From: a virus
Taxonomy: Duplodnaviria; Heunggongvirae; Uroviricota; Caudoviricetes
IMG/VR virus record: IMGVR_UViG_2703718775_000026
Length of the DNA: 39,308 nucleotides
Direction: 5' to 3' (one strand)
The number at the start of each line of letters is the position of its first letter. The stretch's first letter is position 1. A program made the position numbers and the translations under genes. The notes under the pieces were generated by a model. It was given only the letters and a program-made list of their open reading frames with translations. It was not told where the DNA came from and ran no database searches. Shown piece by piece: positions 10,840 to 39,308 of this stretch.

Positions 10840-11265
10840 ATGGCAGAAACTCAGATGAGCATGTTTGGTGGTGACAGTGAGCAACTGCACGCCCTTATCG
10901 ACCGCCTTGATGACATCCCTGATGATGTTCTCAAAAAGAACTGGCCGCGGACCCTGTCAGAACTGGTTGAAGTCACCGGCGCAGAACTTCAGCGTCAGGG
11001 GATTGAGCCGGTACTGGCCGGTAAACTGGCACGCAAGGTGGCTGCGGCTCAGGCAGCCTATATGGGCGGACGGGGTTATTACCTGCCGGTCGGGGAATCT
11101 CTCTTTGCCGAGCTGCGAAACAATGAGATATTTTCGCGCTGGGACCGGGGCGAGAAAATTGAATCCCTTCGCCGCCATTACCGGATGTCAGAAACCCAGA
11201 TTTATACCGTCATACGTGAACAGCGCCGTCTGCATCTGGCAAGAACGCAACCGCCACTTTTCTGA
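10840..11265 (+). CDS. Mor/C-family transcriptional activator (single copy)
   Basis: 141 aa; C-terminal region GGRGYYLPVGESLF...IFSRWD...YRMSETQIYTVIREQRR aligns with Mu Mor GGGQVYIPRGQAL...IWNDF...YGVTFNTVYKAIRRMRR; lies between gemA and lys. Confidence 0.7.
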   Translation: MAETQMSMFGGDSEQLHALIDRLDDIPDDVLKKNWPRTLSELVEVTGAELQRQGIEPVLAGKLARKVAAAQAAYMGGRGYYLPVGESLFAELRNNEIFSRWDRGEKIESLRRHYRMSETQIYTVIREQRRLHLARTQPPLF

Positions 11266-11336
11266 TATTCCGCAAAGCCTGCCGCCTTTCCTTCACCGTT
11301 ACGCTGACTCAGAGAACATCATGAGACAGCGTAACA

Positions 11337-19062: not shown

Positions 19063-19238
19063 TTGTTTAAGGTATGCAAATGCATTACCTTACCCCCTTC
19101 AGGCGCGTGTCGTGATTTTCTAACCTGTATTTAACGGGCTTTAAAATCTGCGTGAAGCGCCTTTGTATTTTTCCCCTGGAAGCACTTCCTGAAATCCCGC
19201 AAAACCCGCCCTGAAAATTCCCGGCCTATGCTGCCGGA

Positions 19239-32052: not shown

Positions 32053-32603
32053 CCCTGACCCCGCATCAGCGTGCCCTGTTGCAGTTGCTGCCTGACGGGC
32101 TGGCATGGGATAAGCGGCCGTCATCCGTTCTTGCGGCTTTGTGCCTGGGCCTCAGTCATTCCACGGAGCGTGTTTCCTGGACCGGTAACCAGATGCTGGC
32201 AGAACGTTTTCCTGATTCATCCCGTCTGCTGCTGGAAGACTGGGAGCGTTATCTGGGGTTACCGGAATGTGATATGACCGGCGCAACAATTCAGGAGCGT
32301 CAGCGTTATGCCGGGAATAAATACCGGATGAAACCCTCTCTTAACCGTGAATTTTATATCCGGTTTGCGGCAGAGTTTGGTTATGAAATAGATATTCAGC
32401 CATCACCGGATTCACAGTGGGTCAGTATTGTCACGATTAACAGTGAAACCGGCTACCGGAATATGAATGTGCTGGATGATATTCTCACGCCGCTGCGTAT
32501 TTATGAAGGCGGTGCGCTGGAATGTATTCTGAACCGTTATAAGCCTGCATGGCAGACGTTTATTTACGTGTATGCAAACAGCCATGAAGAGGAGACTATT
32601 TAA
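32043..32603 (+). CDS. Tail protein (Mu gp48, P2 gpI-like)
   Basis: 186 aa; precedes the tail fibre gene. Confidence 0.55.
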   Translation: MAVTLTPHQRALLQLLPDGLAWDKRPSSVLAALCLGLSHSTERVSWTGNQMLAERFPDSSRLLLEDWERYLGLPECDMTGATIQERQRYAGNKYRMKPSLNREFYIRFAAEFGYEIDIQPSPDSQWVSIVTINSETGYRNMNVLDDILTPLRIYEGGALECILNRYKPAWQTFIYVYANSHEEETI

Positions 32604-33514
32604 TGTTTCATGTTGATAATAATTCCGGCGTGGCGAATATGCCTGCGCTGGCACCGGCGCAGAGTAATACCACCACCTGGTTTACCGAAGGTGACGGACA
32701 AAAAGGTATCAGCTGGATTGGTCAGGACTGGCTGAATATTCTCCAGGCCGAACTGCTGAATATTCTGGCTGAAGCCAGTATTCAGCCGGATAAGGCGCAG
32801 TTAAACCAGCTTACGCTGTCCATTAAAGCCATTATCGCTGCGAATGCCTTTTCCCGGAAAAACAACCTGAAAGAAATTGCTGATGCCGGTGCGGAAGCCC
32901 AGCGTCTTGCCCGTGGTTATCTTGGTCTTGGGGCGCTTGCCACAAAAAACAGTCTTGGTCCCGGTGACGTTAATGCTCTGGCGAAGGATCAGAACCTTGC
33001 CGACCTGGAGAATGCGGGAACCGCCCGTAATAATCTGGATGTTTACAGCAAAAGCGAAGGTGATAACCGTTACCTGCGCAGGGAGCAGAACGGCGCAGAC
33101 ATTCCGGATAAAGGCGCTTTTATCGATAACGTCGGTTTACGGGAAACGGTAAATAAGGCTGCTGATGCCCTGCCATCGGGTGGAACCGCCGTGGCAGCAA
33201 ACAGACTCGCCACCCCAAGAAATATTAATGGCGTTCCTTTTGACGGAACGCAGGATATCAACATCACGTCAGGAATGACGCAGTCAACCGCAGATGGCCG
33301 GTATGTACAGAATGTTCAGCTTGGAGCACAGAGCTATCATTCACCCGGAGGCAATGAAATATCATGGAATTACAGCGCACCTTCCGGTTGTATGCTTTCC
33401 GGTATTAACGTGCAGGAAACCGGCTCCCGGTCTGCGGACAATATCGGTGGGGTCTATTATCGCCCGGTTCAGATTTATATTAATAATGCCTGGAGAACGG
33501 TAAGTTCAGTGTAA
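32603..33514 (+). CDS. Tail fibre protein S (constant part plus currently expressed variable C-terminus Sv)
   Basis: 303 aa; the gix-like site lies inside the gene at about 33120-33145; the C-terminal third is homologous to the inverted S'v cassette. Confidence 0.7.
   Translation: MFHVDNNSGVANMPALAPAQSNTTTWFTEGDGQKGISWIGQDWLNILQAELLNILAEASIQPDKAQLNQLTLSIKAIIAANAFSRKNNLKEIADAGAEAQRLARGYLGLGALATKNSLGPGDVNALAKDQNLADLENAGTARNNLDVYSKSEGDNRYLRREQNGADIPDKGAFIDNVGLRETVNKAADALPSGGTAVAANRLATPRNINGVPFDGTQDINITSGMTQSTADGRYVQNVQLGAQSYHSPGGNEISWNYSAPSGCMLSGINVQETGSRSADNIGGVYYRPVQIYINNAWRTVSSV
33120..33145. other. gix-like recombination site (left), inside S
   Basis: Contains TCGGTTTACGGGA, the reverse complement of TCCCGTAAACCGA in the right site. 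Confidence 0.6.
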
Positions 33515-33521
33515 ACCACAG

Positions 33522-33540
33522 AAAAGGGTGCTGAATGCAC
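33522..33540. terminator. Hairpin between convergent S and U' (terminator-like on the minus strand)
   Basis: AGGGTGC-TGAA-TGCACCCT; on the minus strand it is followed by TTTTCTGTGGTTT. Confidence 0.45.
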
Positions 33541-33548
33541 CCTCTGAA

Positions 33549-34070
33549 TTATTCCGGTTTTTCCGGCCAGGGAATCGCCTGGTAATGCCCCTCACTGGCA
33601 ATATCATTAAAGTGCATTTCTTTAAGCTGTCGGATATACGCCATCCAGCGCGTCAGCTGTAATTTATTTTCATCGCTAATCATGTCCAGTTTTAATTCTG
33701 TTTTCCAGTCATCCACGGTTTCGTTGGCTTCCTGGAGCAGCGATGAGCGACGCTTTTCAGCAACCGTCTTCCAGTTTACCGGCACCTTTGATATCAGGCC
33801 ATCAGAACACTGCCAGTTACCGTCAATATTCACACCTTCCGGCAGTTCGTCCACTTCAACAACAGTAAAACCTGCCGGATATAAAGCAGAGACATCTTCA
33901 GCAACAGAGCAGATAATACCCGTTACAGGCGAAATACAGAGTTTGTATTTCTTTGTGAAAAGCGGGATAGATTCATAAAAATCCCTTCCGTCCTCACTCT
34001 GGAAATACTGAACATCCTCACCATAGGGTTTGTGTTCCGGGTAATATCGTTTTACGTTAATAAGCTCCAT
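33549..34070 (-). CDS. Tail fibre assembly protein (U'-like), currently antisense to S
   Basis: ATG (MELINVKRYYPE...) with AAGGTGA RBS inside minus ORF 33549-34181; about 173 aa, typical Tfa size and composition; inside the invertible segment. Confidence 0.65.
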   Translation of the reverse strand: MELINVKRYYPEHKPYGEDVQYFQSEDGRDFYESIPLFTKKYKLCISPVTGIICSVAEDVSALYPAGFTVVEVDELPEGVNIDGNWQCSDGLISKVPVNWKTVAEKRRSSLLQEANETVDDWKTELKLDMISDENKLQLTRWMAYIRQLKEMHFNDIASEGHYQAIPWPEKPE

Positions 34071-34149
34071 TATTTCACCTTGTTTTTGTTGAAAAGACAA
34101 AATCATCATATATTTATTCAGATAATCTGTTTTTTGAACTACTGCACTT

Positions 34150-34495
34150 TTATGCGCTGGAAGCTGTTTTCCACGAACCATCTATCAGAAACTGAACAGG
34201 TCGATAATATGCGGTTACCGTTGCATTACCATCACCAGCGACATCAAGCCCTGTAAGTACGCATCCGTCAGGAACTTCAAAAATATTATATTGCATTCCA
34301 ATCGTTGACCTTGAACCTCTTCGAATGCTTTGAACATAACGTGAGTCAGCCACAGACTGCGTCATCCCCGATGTAATATTTATATCCTGCGTTCCGTCAA
34401 ATGGGACACCATTAATATTTCTTGGAGTGGCGAGTTTATTCGCTGCAACAGCCGTTCCGTTCGATGGCAGGGCATTCGCGGCCCTGTTTACAGTA
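34150..34495 (-). other. S'v: alternative tail-fibre C-terminal cassette (silent in this orientation)
   Basis: Minus-strand reading from the right gix site gives ...VGLRDTVNRAANALPSNGTAVAANKLATPRNINGVPFDGTQDINITSGMTQSVADSRYVQS..., in frame with and homologous to Sv. Confidence 0.6.
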
Positions 34496-34520
34496 TCCCG
34501 TAAACCGAGGTTTCAGGGAT
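34494..34520. other. gix-like recombination site (right)
   Basis: Near-palindrome ATCCCGTAAACC-GA-GGTTTCAGGGAT, resembling the gix/hix invertase site family. Confidence 0.6.
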
Positions 34521-34574
34521 GCCGTATATCTGCTTTAAAAGGCCTTTCCACCTCTTTTTAAGGAAGGTAAATAC

Positions 34575-35135
34575 ATGCTGATTGGCTATATACGCGTATC
34601 AACAAATGACCAGAACACCGGTTTACAAAGAAATGCGCTGGAATGTGCAGGATGTGAGCAGATTTTTGAAGACAAAATGAGTGGTAAAACGACACAGCGG
34701 CCGGGACTGAAGCGGGCACTGAAGAAACTAAAACCCGGTGACACACTGATGGTCTGGAAACTGGACAGGCTGGGGCGCAGTATGCGCCACCTTGTTGCGC
34801 TGACAGATGAATTACAGCAACAGGGGATAAATTTTCGTAGTCTTACTGACAACATTGATACGTCAACCCCCATGGGGCGCTTCTTTTTTCACATAATGGG
34901 TGCGCTGGCAGAAATGGAGCGTGAATTAATTGTCGAACGGACACGGGCTGGTCTTGCAGCTGCCCGTGAAAGGGGACGAACCGGCGGCAGACCCCGTCGT
35001 CTCACGCAGGAACAATACGAGCAGGTCGGGCGTTTACTGGCCGGGGGTGTCAGTCGAAGACAGGTGGCACTTATTTTTGATATCGGCCTTTCAACCCTTT
35101 ATCGTTATTATCCTGCGAGCGTTTCGGAAAAATAA
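34575..35135 (+). CDS. gin: Gin/Pin/Hin-family serine DNA invertase
   Basis: 186 aa; MLIGYIRVSTNDQNTGLQRNALECAGCEQIFEDK... is nearly identical in pattern to Mu Gin; catalytic-Ser motif RVSTNDQ; C-terminal HTH. Confidence 0.9.
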   Translation: MLIGYIRVSTNDQNTGLQRNALECAGCEQIFEDKMSGKTTQRPGLKRALKKLKPGDTLMVWKLDRLGRSMRHLVALTDELQQQGINFRSLTDNIDTSTPMGRFFFHIMGALAEMERELIVERTRAGLAAARERGRTGGRPRRLTQEQYEQVGRLLAGGVSRRQVALIFDIGLSTLYRYYPASVSEK

Positions 35136-35225: not shown

Positions 35226-37283
35226 ATGAATATTATGACGTCCAAATGGGTTCAACTATCATCAATGCCCGGAAACTTTACCGTTAAAGTTTCCGGTGGT
35301 ACAGCGGCATTTCTTGAGGCTCCCTTTCCTCCTGCTGAAACGAAAGGAGGAATGACATTTGCTGACTGTCTCATCAGTTTTAATACACAGGATTGCCTGT
35401 GGGTAAGGCCAGTATCCGGTGATCCGAACGTGGAAATTACCGGAGCGGGTATTGGTGCTGTCATTCCGTTAAGTGCTGATGTTGCCGGTACTACTGAACC
35501 GTCAGACTGGGATAATGCAGAAACACATACCCGTCCGGCAGGAAATGAAACGGCTTCCAGCTCCCCTTCCTGGTATTACGTGATTGTTATAGCCGGCCAG
35601 TCCAATGCTTCATCTTATGGTGAAGGGTTGCCCCTTCCGGATTCTTATGATCGTCCTGATCCACGTATTATGCAGCTGGCACGCAGGAATACACAAACCC
35701 CCGGAGGTATTCCCTGCAAATACAATGAAATCATTCCAGCAGATCACTGCCTTCATGATGTTCAGAATATGAGTCTGCTGAACCATCCAAAAGCAGACCT
35801 GAAAAAAGGGCAGTATGGTTGTGTGGGGCAGGGACTTCATATTGCGAAAAAAGTATTACCGGTGATTCCTGCTGATGCCGGGATTTTACTGGTTCCCTGT
35901 GCCCGTGGCGGCTCTGCTTTTACAACCGGCGCAGTTGGCTCATTCGATCCGGCAAGTGGTGCAGCCGAGGCGTCACTACGCTGGGGAGTGGATACCCCAC
36001 TGTATCAGGATCTTGTCAGTCGAACTAAAGCGGCACTTGAGGCGAATCCAAAGAATGTGCTGTTATCTGTCGTATGGATTCAGGGGGAAGGAGACCTTAA
36101 AGCGACCCCGGCCCAGCATGGTGCCCAGTTTACTGCGATGGTGAAAAAATTCCGTGCGGATCTTGGTGCTTTCTCCGGTCAGTGTATTGGTGGTTCATCA
36201 GACAGTGTGCCGTGGTTATGTGGTGACACAACCTATGACTGGAAAGAGAAGAACCCAGCGGCATATGAAACCATTTATAGCGGATATAAAAACCGGGCTT
36301 CCGAGAACATTCACTTTGTTCCACTGATGCACGATGAGTTCGGTAATAAAACCGCGACCAACCTGCCGGAGCACGACCCGGATATCGCTTCTGCCGGGTA
36401 TTATGGTGCGGAATCACGGGGAGATGGCAACTGGACAACAGCATCCAGGGCAACCCATTTTAGCTCCTGGGCGCGCCGTTTTCTGGTCTCAGATCGTTTT
36501 GCATCAGCAATTCTTAAATATGCAGGTCTGACCTCTGCATTTATTGCCGGTGTGGCCCCTGATGGTGAAGCCCTGCCTCAGCCCGCGCCGGGTGGGAAAC
36601 CGGAAGCGCCGACAGGTAGTCAGCCAGGAGGCAGTGAGTCCCCCCATCCGACATCCCCGTCACTCCGTACGCTGCTTTCACTTAAAGCATCAGCAGGAGA
36701 AGCCCCGGCTCAGGGCTGGAAAATTACAGATGGTACAATCCAGCTGACGGACGAAGGTAAAGCGTTGACCGTATCCAAACAAAGCGGAAAAACCTGGGCG
36801 CTTACCCATGGAACTGATGCAGCCGGTGAACTTCTGAAGCATGGTGGTCAGTTGACCTGTAAATTCCGTCTGTCAGGTGAAGTAAAAGAAGGCCAGTTTG
36901 CTCTGGGTATTTACCTCCACACCGATACGGTCCCGGAAGGTGTAACCATGAGTGGTACAGGCACACCGTTCCTGATGGCGTATTATCTCCAGACAACAGG
37001 CGGCCAGTTAAATCTGATGCACCATAAAACAGGGGGGAATACGAAACTGGGATCATTTGGAGCCTACAATAACCAGTGGCATACACTTGTCCTGAAGTTT
37101 ACGGCGGGAAGTGCCCAGGTAACGCCTGTGCTGGATGGCACTCCGGGCCAGGCATTCCAGATGGTGAAAGATGCACTTTCCCCTGCCAAAGATACGCTGA
37201 CACTGACAGATGTCACCAAAGGGGCAACTTATGGCGTGTCTTTTGAGAGCGTTGTCCTTGAGGTTAATACCCCTGCGGCATAA
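35226..37283 (+). CDS. SGNH/GDSL-type esterase (sialate/carbohydrate O-acetylesterase-like) with C-terminal lectin-like domain; cargo protein
   Basis: 685 aa. GQSN nucleophile motif (VIVIAGQSNASSYGEG, nt about 35595-35606), WIQGEGD block and later His/Asp candidates; C-terminal ~200 aa with beta-rich, lectin-like composition. Architecture resembles prophage NanS-p-type esterases. Confidence 0.55.
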   Translation: MNIMTSKWVQLSSMPGNFTVKVSGGTAAFLEAPFPPAETKGGMTFADCLISFNTQDCLWVRPVSGDPNVEITGAGIGAVIPLSADVAGTTEPSDWDNAETHTRPAGNETASSSPSWYYVIVIAGQSNASSYGEGLPLPDSYDRPDPRIMQLARRNTQTPGGIPCKYNEIIPADHCLHDVQNMSLLNHPKADLKKGQYGCVGQGLHIAKKVLPVIPADAGILLVPCARGGSAFTTGAVGSFDPASGAAEASLRWGVDTPLYQDLVSRTKAALEANPKNVLLSVVWIQGEGDLKATPAQHGAQFTAMVKKFRADLGAFSGQCIGGSSDSVPWLCGDTTYDWKEKNPAAYETIYSGYKNRASENIHFVPLMHDEFGNKTATNLPEHDPDIASAGYYGAESRGDGNWTTASRATHFSSWARRFLVSDRFASAILKYAGLTSAFIAGVAPDGEALPQPAPGGKPEAPTGSQPGGSESPHPTSPSLRTLLSLKASAGEAPAQGWKITDGTIQLTDEGKALTVSKQSGKTWALTHGTDAAGELLKHGGQLTCKFRLSGEVKEGQFALGIYLHTDTVPEGVTMSGTGTPFLMAYYLQTTGGQLNLMHHKTGGNTKLGSFGAYNNQWHTLVLKFTAGSAQVTPVLDGTPGQAFQMVKDALSPAKDTLTLTDVTKGATYGVSFESVVLEVNTPAA

Positions 37284-38189: not shown

Positions 38190-38416
38190 TACGCGCGATC
38201 CTACCTTCACTGTATAAAAAGTCAATAAAATGATCATTTTATGATCGTTTTCACCACCTAACTCTTCGTTTCTTTAAGTAAATAATCACCGCCCTGAATC
38301 ATTGTTGATGACTTTTAAATCTATTTGTTGTATCAATTAAACAAATCGAATCGATCGTTTTTGTCGATCGATTGCATGAGAAAGGCATCAACAACAAAGC
38401 AGGAGGTTATGCGGCC
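38190..38416 (+). promoter_or_regulatory. Putative mom-operon regulatory region with clustered Dam (GATC) sites
   Basis: Five GATC within about 175 bp (about 38197, 38232, 38243, 38353, 38366), arranged as two repeat pairs: TGATCATTTTATGATCGTTTT and ATCGATCGTTTTTGTCGATCGAT. Confidence 0.5.
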
Positions 38417-38617
38417 ATGTATCGAAACATACGGTGCCGACACTGCAATAAGCTACTGGCACGGGCCAGTTTCAGTTATCTGGAAGTAAAATGTCCGCGC
38501 TGTAAAACCCTCAATCAAATCACATCTCCGAGCGCCACAGAGCACCCCACATACACAAGGAAATCCTGTCGTGGGGAACAGAAAGCAAGTCACATCCCGT
38601 ATCATCAGCACGCCTGA
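38417..38617 (+). CDS. com: Com-like zinc-finger translational activator of mom
   Basis: ATG with AGCAGGAGG RBS; [35 protein letters not shown] resembles Mu Com (...IRCKNCNKLL...IEIRCPRCKR...); overlaps the mom start. Confidence 0.7.
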
Positions 38618-39308
38618 ACTTATTCGCTATAACGACAATATCGTTGGTTATGGCTCCCGTGAGTTGCGGGTTGAGACAATAAGTTGCTGGCTGGCCAGAC
38701 TGGTTATCGTCAATAAACATTACAGCCACCGTTTCGTAAATAATTCCTACCTTCATCTGGGTATATTTTCAGAACGGGAACTTGTTGGCGTAATGCAATG
38801 GGGTTACGCCCTTAACCCAAACAGTGGTGCACGCGTCGTAACGGGTACGCAGAACCGAGAATATATGGAGCTTAACCGGCTATGGATGCATGACTGTATG
38901 CCGAGAAACTCCGAATCAAGGGCAATCAGTTACGCGCTCAAGCTAATCAGGCAGCTTTATCCGCAGGTACAGTGGGTTCAGTCGTTTGCAGATGAGCGTT
39001 GTGGCTGTCTTGGTGTCGTGTATCAGGCAAGCAATTTTGATTATGTAGGCAGCCATGAATCAACATTCTATGAACTTGATGGCGAGTGGTATCACGAGAT
39101 TTGCAGGAGTGCCATTAAACGAGGCGGACAACGAGGTGAACATCTGAGGGCTAATATCGACAGAGCCAGTGTGCATAAGTTCCGACAGTTTCGTTACATC
39201 CGGTTTCTGAACAAGAGGGCCAGAAAACGCCTCAACACAAAGCTATTCAAAGTCCAGCCTTACCCAAAACCACAAACAGTTAAAACTGGTTTGAAAGAGA
39301 GTGAATGA
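38571..39308 (+). CDS. mom: Mom-like DNA modification protein (adenine modification, anti-restriction); start uncertain
   Basis: 245-aa ORF overlapping the com 3' end, stop at window end; position downstream of gin and com as in Mu. Confidence 0.65.

Follow-up and report, generated by a model that had tools for sequence, protein, structure and literature searches.

A compact invertible tail-fibre segment with one assembly gene in a Mu-like prophage of Escherichia coli O157, and a possible shared chaperone for its two fibre tips

The DNA analysed here, a stretch of 39,308 nt that we call the window, is a Sp18-type Mu-like prophage of E. coli O157, in which the tail-fibre gene S runs into a 1.37-kb Gin-type invertible segment followed by a DNA invertase gene (Table 1). 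The segment contains, in order, the expressed fibre end Sv, a hairpin, one tail-fibre assembly gene (tfa) and an alternative fibre end, S'v. Homologues of Mu gp44-48 lie upstream of S, those of gp47 and gp48 directly before it. Positions 32603-35135 match complete O157:H7 genomes, e.g. that of strain NE 1092-2, at 100%, and the counterparts in strain Sakai are ECs4989 (fibre, plus strand), ECs4990 (tfa, minus strand), ECs4991 (fibre fragment, minus strand) and ECs4992 (invertase, plus strand). The Sakai Sp18 prophage is the same element, with no structural difference, and its assembled orientation is that of the window, with Sv in frame with the constant part of S (Sv-ON). The element itself is known and annotated, and the accessible sections of one report attribute to Sp18 an invertible region for host specificity that differs from that of Mu (PMC2669165). 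Within the accessible literature, a scope outside which the work on the S. boydii B segment (pinB) falls, we found no discussion of the one-chaperone design, its conservation, the convergent placement of chaperone and tip, or independent transcription of tfa.

Table 1. Coordinates of the tail-fibre switch region in the window, with the basis of each assignment.
Feature	Position	Strand	Basis
Sc, constant N-terminal part of tail-fibre gene S	32603..33119	+	ORF; phrog_1833 over its full length
Left crossover site, gixL-like	33120..33145		TTATCGATAACG-TC-GGTTTACGGGAA
Sv, variable C-terminal part, at present in frame with Sc	33134..33514	+	tip aligns to the end of Mu S
Hairpin between the convergent Sv and tfa	33523..33545		folding and terminator scoring
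tfa, tail-fibre assembly gene, 173 aa	33549..34070	-	PF02413, phrog_136
S'v-tfa spacer, non-coding, 79 nt, 75% A+T	34071..34149	-	from S'v stop to tfa start
S'v, alternative variable C-terminal part	34150..34512	-	coding stretch without a start
Right crossover site, gixR-like	34495..34520		ATCCCGTAAACC-GA-GGTTTCAGGGAT
Gin/Pin-type serine DNA invertase, outside the segment	34575..35135	+	PF00239 and PF02796; phrog_125

Between the invertase and com/mom lies a 685-aa gene (35226-37283, plus strand) that has no counterpart at this place in Mu. It encodes a sialate-O-acetylesterase-type domain (PF03629) together with DUF6645, belongs to phrog_143, a PHROG of unknown function, and is only 67-78% identical in many relatives although its flanks are ~98% identical; it may be cargo, a surface-modifying gene or a second host-range determinant. 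At the right end (38571-39308), a Mom-like ORF continues to the end of the window, unlike in strain NE 1092-2, where the annotation runs from com into the disrupted host gene ycjN without mom and the prophage is otherwise identical. Two records of Stx-converting phages (LC727881.1, here L002, and LC727895.1) contain an inserted Mu-like phage of the window type, whose invertible region is 94% identical to that of the window and has the one-tfa layout too.

S is an intact ORF of 303 aa (32603-33514, plus strand). Residues 1-198 match tail fibre S of Mu (5yvq_A/9ki1, E 1e-48), and residues 228-302 align with residues 434-503 of Mu S, up to the C-terminal end of both proteins. Sc attaches to the baseplate and is common to both fibre variants, and the Sv tip is of the '...VQETGSRSADNIGGVYYRPVQIYINNAWRTVSSV' type. 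An AlphaFold model of S (mean pLDDT 47.5) is confident for residues 225-303 only, and from it we used a single result, that the best fold match of this part of the tip is 5yvq_A, the tip of the Mu fibre from a crystal that includes the chaperone. The earlier note on this DNA, made from the sequence alone, had raised an intramolecular chaperone in the Sv C-terminus and proposed structure prediction as a check. We rejected this idea because S has no Pfam family, no extra C-terminal domain past the receptor-binding tip (a Peptidase_S74-type chaperone feature is absent) and an alignment that reaches the C-terminus of Mu S. The alternative end, S'v, is a promoterless coding stretch with a stop codon ahead of it and no start codon. 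Comparison of Sv alleles gave a dN/dS of 0.08-0.10 at dS 1.0-1.7, which indicates strong purifying selection, and in L002 the nucleotide identity of Sv drops to 78.6% between flanks that are 98-100% identical, marking Sv as a hot spot of allele exchange.

Both crossover sites are contained in imperfect inverted repeats of 182 nt (33128-33309 and 34331-34512; 79% complementary). They are 26-bp Din-type sites in inverted orientation with matching 2-bp cores (TC/GA), and the left site read on the opposite strand, TTCCCGTAAACC-GA-CGTTATCGATAA, is close to tabulated bix and gix sites of the Din family (PMC3241671). The invertase matches PF00239 (E 1e-51), PF02796 (C-terminal HTH; E 2e-14) and phrog_125, 'DNA invertase' (E 6e-95). 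An in-silico flip of 33134-34506 produces an in-frame 295-aa fibre, S', followed by tfa, and exactly this arrangement is naturally encoded in L009/L047 and in 23 E. coli genomes. With an invertase, paired sites, a frame-keeping swap and both orientations found in nature, the segment fits the Din-family (Gin/Cin/Pin/Hin) type of invertible tail-fibre system. Among complete E. coli genomes with matches at >=80% coverage, 182 are Sv-ON and 23 are flipped, and the IMG/VR loci comprise 22 Sv-ON and 6 S'v-ON cases. This skew to Sv-ON, ~8:1 among the 205 complete genomes and ~4:1 in IMG/VR, may stem from clonality among the genomes, from an inversion equilibrium that favours one state or from the orientation that the infecting phage had. 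The window has just these two crossover sites and none that would flip tfa alone; separate flipping of tfa was rejected for this reason.

The Tfa protein matches PF02413 (E 5e-18; 65.9 bits against a gathering cut-off of 22.1), phrog_136 (E 3e-56) and Mu U (5yvq_B, E 3e-14), and its gene has a ribosome-binding site, AAGGTG, 6 nt ahead of the ATG. The earlier note had reported one Tfa-like gene, antisense to the expressed S-Sv, and no assembly gene on the strand of Sv, and our searches bear out both statements. A Tfa profile run in six frames over the whole 39-kb window found only 33552-34181 on the minus strand (next best E = 2). The 34 nt between the stop codons of Sv (33514) and tfa (33549) are filled by the hairpin, and the plus-strand ORFs that overlap tfa (33528-33662 and 33682-33978) belong to no PHROG or NCBIfam family. 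A hidden second tfa was rejected because the profile search and the family searches were both empty. The asymmetry relative to Mu that the note pointed out is real as well, since the classical Mu relatives SfMu and Yersinia Muvirus carry S-U / U'-S' (PMC11915804).

The hairpin, which the note had placed at 33522-33540 and read as a terminator mainly for the minus strand, is terminator-like on that strand only. On the minus strand it has a folding energy of -17.8 kcal/mol (z -3.4) with a U run, and UUUUCUGUGGUUU follows the hairpin, whereas on the plus strand the energy is -15.1 kcal/mol and a U run is absent. It is therefore predicted to be an intrinsic terminator for the tfa strand that is weak or absent for the S strand. 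The hairpin is 100% conserved among all A-type relatives (the sequence type of the window, see below), and analogous hairpins occupy the same position in the other one-tfa types.

The one-tfa layout was found in four sequence types, namely A (the window), B (L025/L023), C (L044/L052/L035) and E, the last from Citrobacter braakii ATCC 51113 (L003), and the design is present in many hosts and serotypes as well as in Citrobacter. In every one of these types the genes are convergent with a hairpin between them, and the stop codons of Sv and tfa are less than 60 nt apart; the Tfa of type E is of a different family. The type E region (L003, 6819-9223) has three crossover sites, three alternative tips and one tfa. 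One of its sites lies in S, and the opposite side holds two more, in direct orientation and 366 nt from each other, so that it looks like a small multiple-inversion system. The comparison with related prophages for a second tfa that the earlier note suggested had a divided outcome: none was found in types A, B, C and E, and L041, a member of the window's own clade, has two. We claim a single tfa for types A, B, C and E only, because these leave no physical room for another and because the Tfa profile did not detect the divergent second tfa of L041. A scan of genome contigs gave four loci only. Given four cassette types, both orientations in nature and purifying selection on Sv, the one-tfa layout represents a conserved design rather than decay, and it probably arose more than once.

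A further regularity concerns the distance between fibre and assembly gene. In 27 pairs from two-tfa segments this gap is 2-16 nt, whereas in 24 pairs from one-tfa invertible segments it is 49-119 nt and A+T-rich. Long A+T-rich spacers are exclusive to one-tfa segments, which indirectly favours independent expression of tfa. In the A-type relatives the spacer is 100% identical throughout, even where tfa or S'v has diverged. However, the spacer moves together with the S'v cassette, and the 120-nt spacer of type C (L044/L052) opens with a relic, ...INGSWRTAGSA*, left by the 3' terminus of an earlier fibre cassette; it is therefore possible that the spacer is recombination debris and not a regulatory element. 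The relic also suggests that new tips seem to have been inserted ahead of a resident tfa.

To which tip the Tfa belongs can be approached through its homologues. The closest ones outside invertible segments (53-57% identity, full length) occur in the lambdoid phage Rac-SA53, an invertase-less Mu-like prophage (L088-90) and a P2-like prophage (L094), where each follows a Sv-like tip on the same strand after 2-15 nt. These tips are 58-70% identical to Sv versus ~30-38% to S'v, and other Tfa homologues accompany further tip subtypes. Alleles and cassettes are also mixed within the invertible segments: one Tfa allele is joined to differing S'v cassettes (L035, P0002), one S'v with its spacer is joined to Tfa alleles that are 66-98% identical, and the single tfa of L003 lies downstream of two alternative cassettes. 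From the neighbours of the homologues and this mixing we conclude that the Tfa family is promiscuous and at least as much the natural partner of Sv as of S'v. The earlier note had paired tfa with the silent S'v, and as a statement on gene order this stands, since tfa lies downstream of and co-directional with S'v and is convergent with Sv. As an exclusive pairing that leaves Sv without a chaperone it is probably wrong, given that the family stands behind Sv-like tips in three unrelated non-invertible phages and that the same Tfa occurs with different S'v cassettes. Where a tip has no adjoining tfa, it is nearly always of the 'SADNI' type (...VQ[DE]TGxxSADNIGGVYYRPVQ...), and a SADNI-type tip has tfa behind it in SfMu, L003 and Rac-SA53.

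The invertase-less Mu-like prophages of E. coli and Salmonella (L088-L090, L097) carry two fibre-chaperone sets in tandem before com/mom, a short Sv-like fibre with Tfa and then a lambda Stf-like fibre with a DUF4376 protein, which by their gene content represent an alternative route to two specificities.

Published array data bear on whether tfa is transcribed while antisense to S. In the growth time course of Sakai on 70-mer oligonucleotide arrays by Bergholz et al., 2007, the signals of ECs4990 (tfa) and ECs4991 (S'v) climb side by side, starting near -0.9 and reaching +1.3 and +1.1 log2, respectively, a step of ~2.2 log2 (4-5 fold) between 5 and 5.5 h (FDR p = 0), whereas ECs4989 (S) has no significant step over the same interval (PMC2241611). 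ECs4961, the homologue of the Mu late activator C, increases from -0.84 to +1.11 one sampling point before ECs4990 and ECs4991, while ECs4986 declines and the increase of the head genes comes later and is smaller than that of these two (PMC2241611). These values come from one study of an uninduced lysogen; the orientation cited for Sakai, Sv-ON, is that of its genome assembly and need not be that of the array culture, and the signals are known per gene and not per probe position. Read with these limits, the time course indicates that S'v and tfa are transcribed as a unit, independently of the late P operon. The earlier note had named expression of the minus-strand tfa from its own promoter as evidence that would count against its reading, and the co-induction of ECs4990 and ECs4991 independently of ECs4989 is published experimental support for such expression (PMC2241611).

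The promoter of such a unit was sought with a consensus search and with a weight matrix whose scores were compared with those of random windows. Neither gave a convincing sigma-70 site for tfa. On the tfa strand of the spacer and S'v, the highest scores ranked between the 56th and the 94th percentile of random 150-nt windows, and candidates in types B and E were rejected since their positions are not conserved. Two places only, ahead of the lysis gene (11263-11283, plus strand) and ahead of the protease/scaffold gene I (19190-19210, plus strand), carry a 21-nt motif, TGAWATYCCGCAAARCCYGCC, and CCGCCCTGAA is common to this lys/I motif and the region upstream of com (38289); both are candidate binding sites for the late activator. 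Neither of these putative late-promoter motifs has a match in or beside the segment, and a C-dependent late promoter for tfa was rejected because the lys/I motif is absent there. A C site of the form TTAT-N6-ATAA was not borne out in the window phage, whose C protein is encoded at 10840-11265. Upstream of com there is also a GATC-rich palindrome, CGAATCGATCGTTTTTGTCGATCGATTG (38325-38365, plus strand), which resembles the region through which Dam methylation controls the mom operon of Mu.

We propose that the locus is a compact host-range switch of the G-segment type, in which Gin-type inversion between the 26-bp sites within S would fuse Sc either to Sv, giving the 303-aa fibre of the present state, or to S'v, giving the 295-aa fibre. 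With S'v-ON, transcription of the late P operon would run through S' into tfa and stop at the hairpin. With Sv-ON, where tfa lies antisense to S, a separate leftward promoter located upstream of S'v would drive one transcript that spans the untranslated S'v and tfa. Since tfa would be transcribed in both orientations, the chaperone would be made whichever tip is expressed. We regard as most likely, with moderate confidence, that a single promiscuous Tfa serves both tips and is transcribed independently of the switch, and we infer that the tfa RNA is sufficient for lytic growth, that Tfa folds Sv and that the promoter has the position given above. One point against a shared chaperone is that the hairpin, a weak terminator on the plus strand, would allow transcripts of S to continue into tfa in antisense.

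The main rival to the shared chaperone, which we regard as rather unlikely, is that Sv fibres fold without Tfa, so that the switch would alternate between a bare Sv fibre and a chaperone-dependent, possibly Tfa-capped, S'v fibre, and the tfa transcript of the lysogen would be irrelevant to Sv. Gene order agrees with this, as tfa is paired with S'v in a unit terminated by the hairpin and read-through from S on the plus strand is antisense to tfa; a promoter for tfa is not recognisable, and the design is stable across four cassette types. However, the Sv tip has the fold of the Mu S tip that was crystallised with a chaperone, it carries neither an extra C-terminal domain nor a Pfam match, tips 58-70% identical to it always have a tfa of the same family behind them elsewhere, and tfa RNA is made in Sakai, the Sv-ON reference strain. 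A related and, in our estimate, improbable notion is that inversion switches chaperone use along with the tip, the Sv-ON fibre assembling without Tfa, 'uncapped', despite its Mu/P2-type tip fold, and the S'v-ON fibre being made with Tfa, which may stay bound and aid host binding. Were this true, Sv would be a natural example of a tip that does without a chaperone in a family for which Tfa is held to be required.

The two remaining explanations concern a chaperone supplied from elsewhere and a fibre that fails. Many tfa genes of lambdoid and P2-like type are present in O157 strains, and Sv might be folded in trans by Tfa from other resident prophages; Tfa proteins of the window family do pair with several tip subtypes, and the accessible part of Asadulghani et al. 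describes defective O157 prophages that complement each other in head functions (PMC2669165). The one-tfa design is nevertheless kept in many hosts, in many serotypes and in Citrobacter, resident prophages would be unreliable for a phage that must infect new hosts, and the 2.5-kb region sits at a single near-identical place in most O157 genomes. We consider supply in trans the least probable of the explanations, and a chaperone encoded elsewhere, one of the options in the earlier note, is not needed. That note had also allowed for an assembly-deficient current orientation, i.e. Sv-ON giving fibre-less or poorly infectious particles, with the asymmetry a tolerated defect after loss of a second tfa. 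An origin by deletion is plausible in view of the two-tfa relatives in the clade (L041) and in classical Mu, and for Sp18 the accessible part of Asadulghani et al. reports DNA packaging rather than plaque formation or transfer (PMC2669165). We nevertheless find this very improbable, given the strong purifying selection on Sv across saturated synonymous divergence, its exchange of alleles in L002, the predominance of the Sv-ON state and the probable repeated origin of the layout.

A single chaperone shared by both tips, our preferred reading, would set the window apart from an otherwise familiar system. As in the Mu G segment with Gin, and likewise in SfMu, D108 and Yersinia Muvirus, gp44-48 baseplate genes lie upstream and a crossover site is inside S. 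Also shared with the G segment are a constant N-terminus with alternative C-termini, 26-bp Din-type sites with a 2-bp core, a serine invertase just outside the segment and com/mom further right. However, the Mu segment is ~3 kb long and its fibres have ~500 aa, and Mu has U and U', one chaperone for each fibre variant, with gaps of 2-16 nt before the assembly gene in segments of its type. In Rac-SA53 and in P2-like and invertase-less Mu-like modules, tfa follows its fibre on the same strand at a distance of 2-15 nt and the pair does not invert, whereas in the window the two related parts are convergent. Min of p15B and the Citrobacter segment resemble the window in combining a Din-family invertase with several alternative fibre 3' cassettes; the window has two sites and two tips only, as opposed to three of each in the Citrobacter segment.

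The engineering of tail fibres for phage therapy and the retargeting of tailocins assume that a tip travels with its cognate chaperone. In the switch described here, which is natural and widespread, the opposite appears to hold, with the chaperone fixed, tip cassettes swapped ahead of it, and the chaperone antisense to the tip that its family usually accompanies. The element is carried by O157 and other STEC, a major lineage of pathogens in which the Mu-like phage is intact and mobile. If our reading is confirmed, several tips can use one Tfa as a common hub and the expression of Tfa can be separated from the inversion switch, and the segment would offer a simple genetic system for finding what Tfa recognises.
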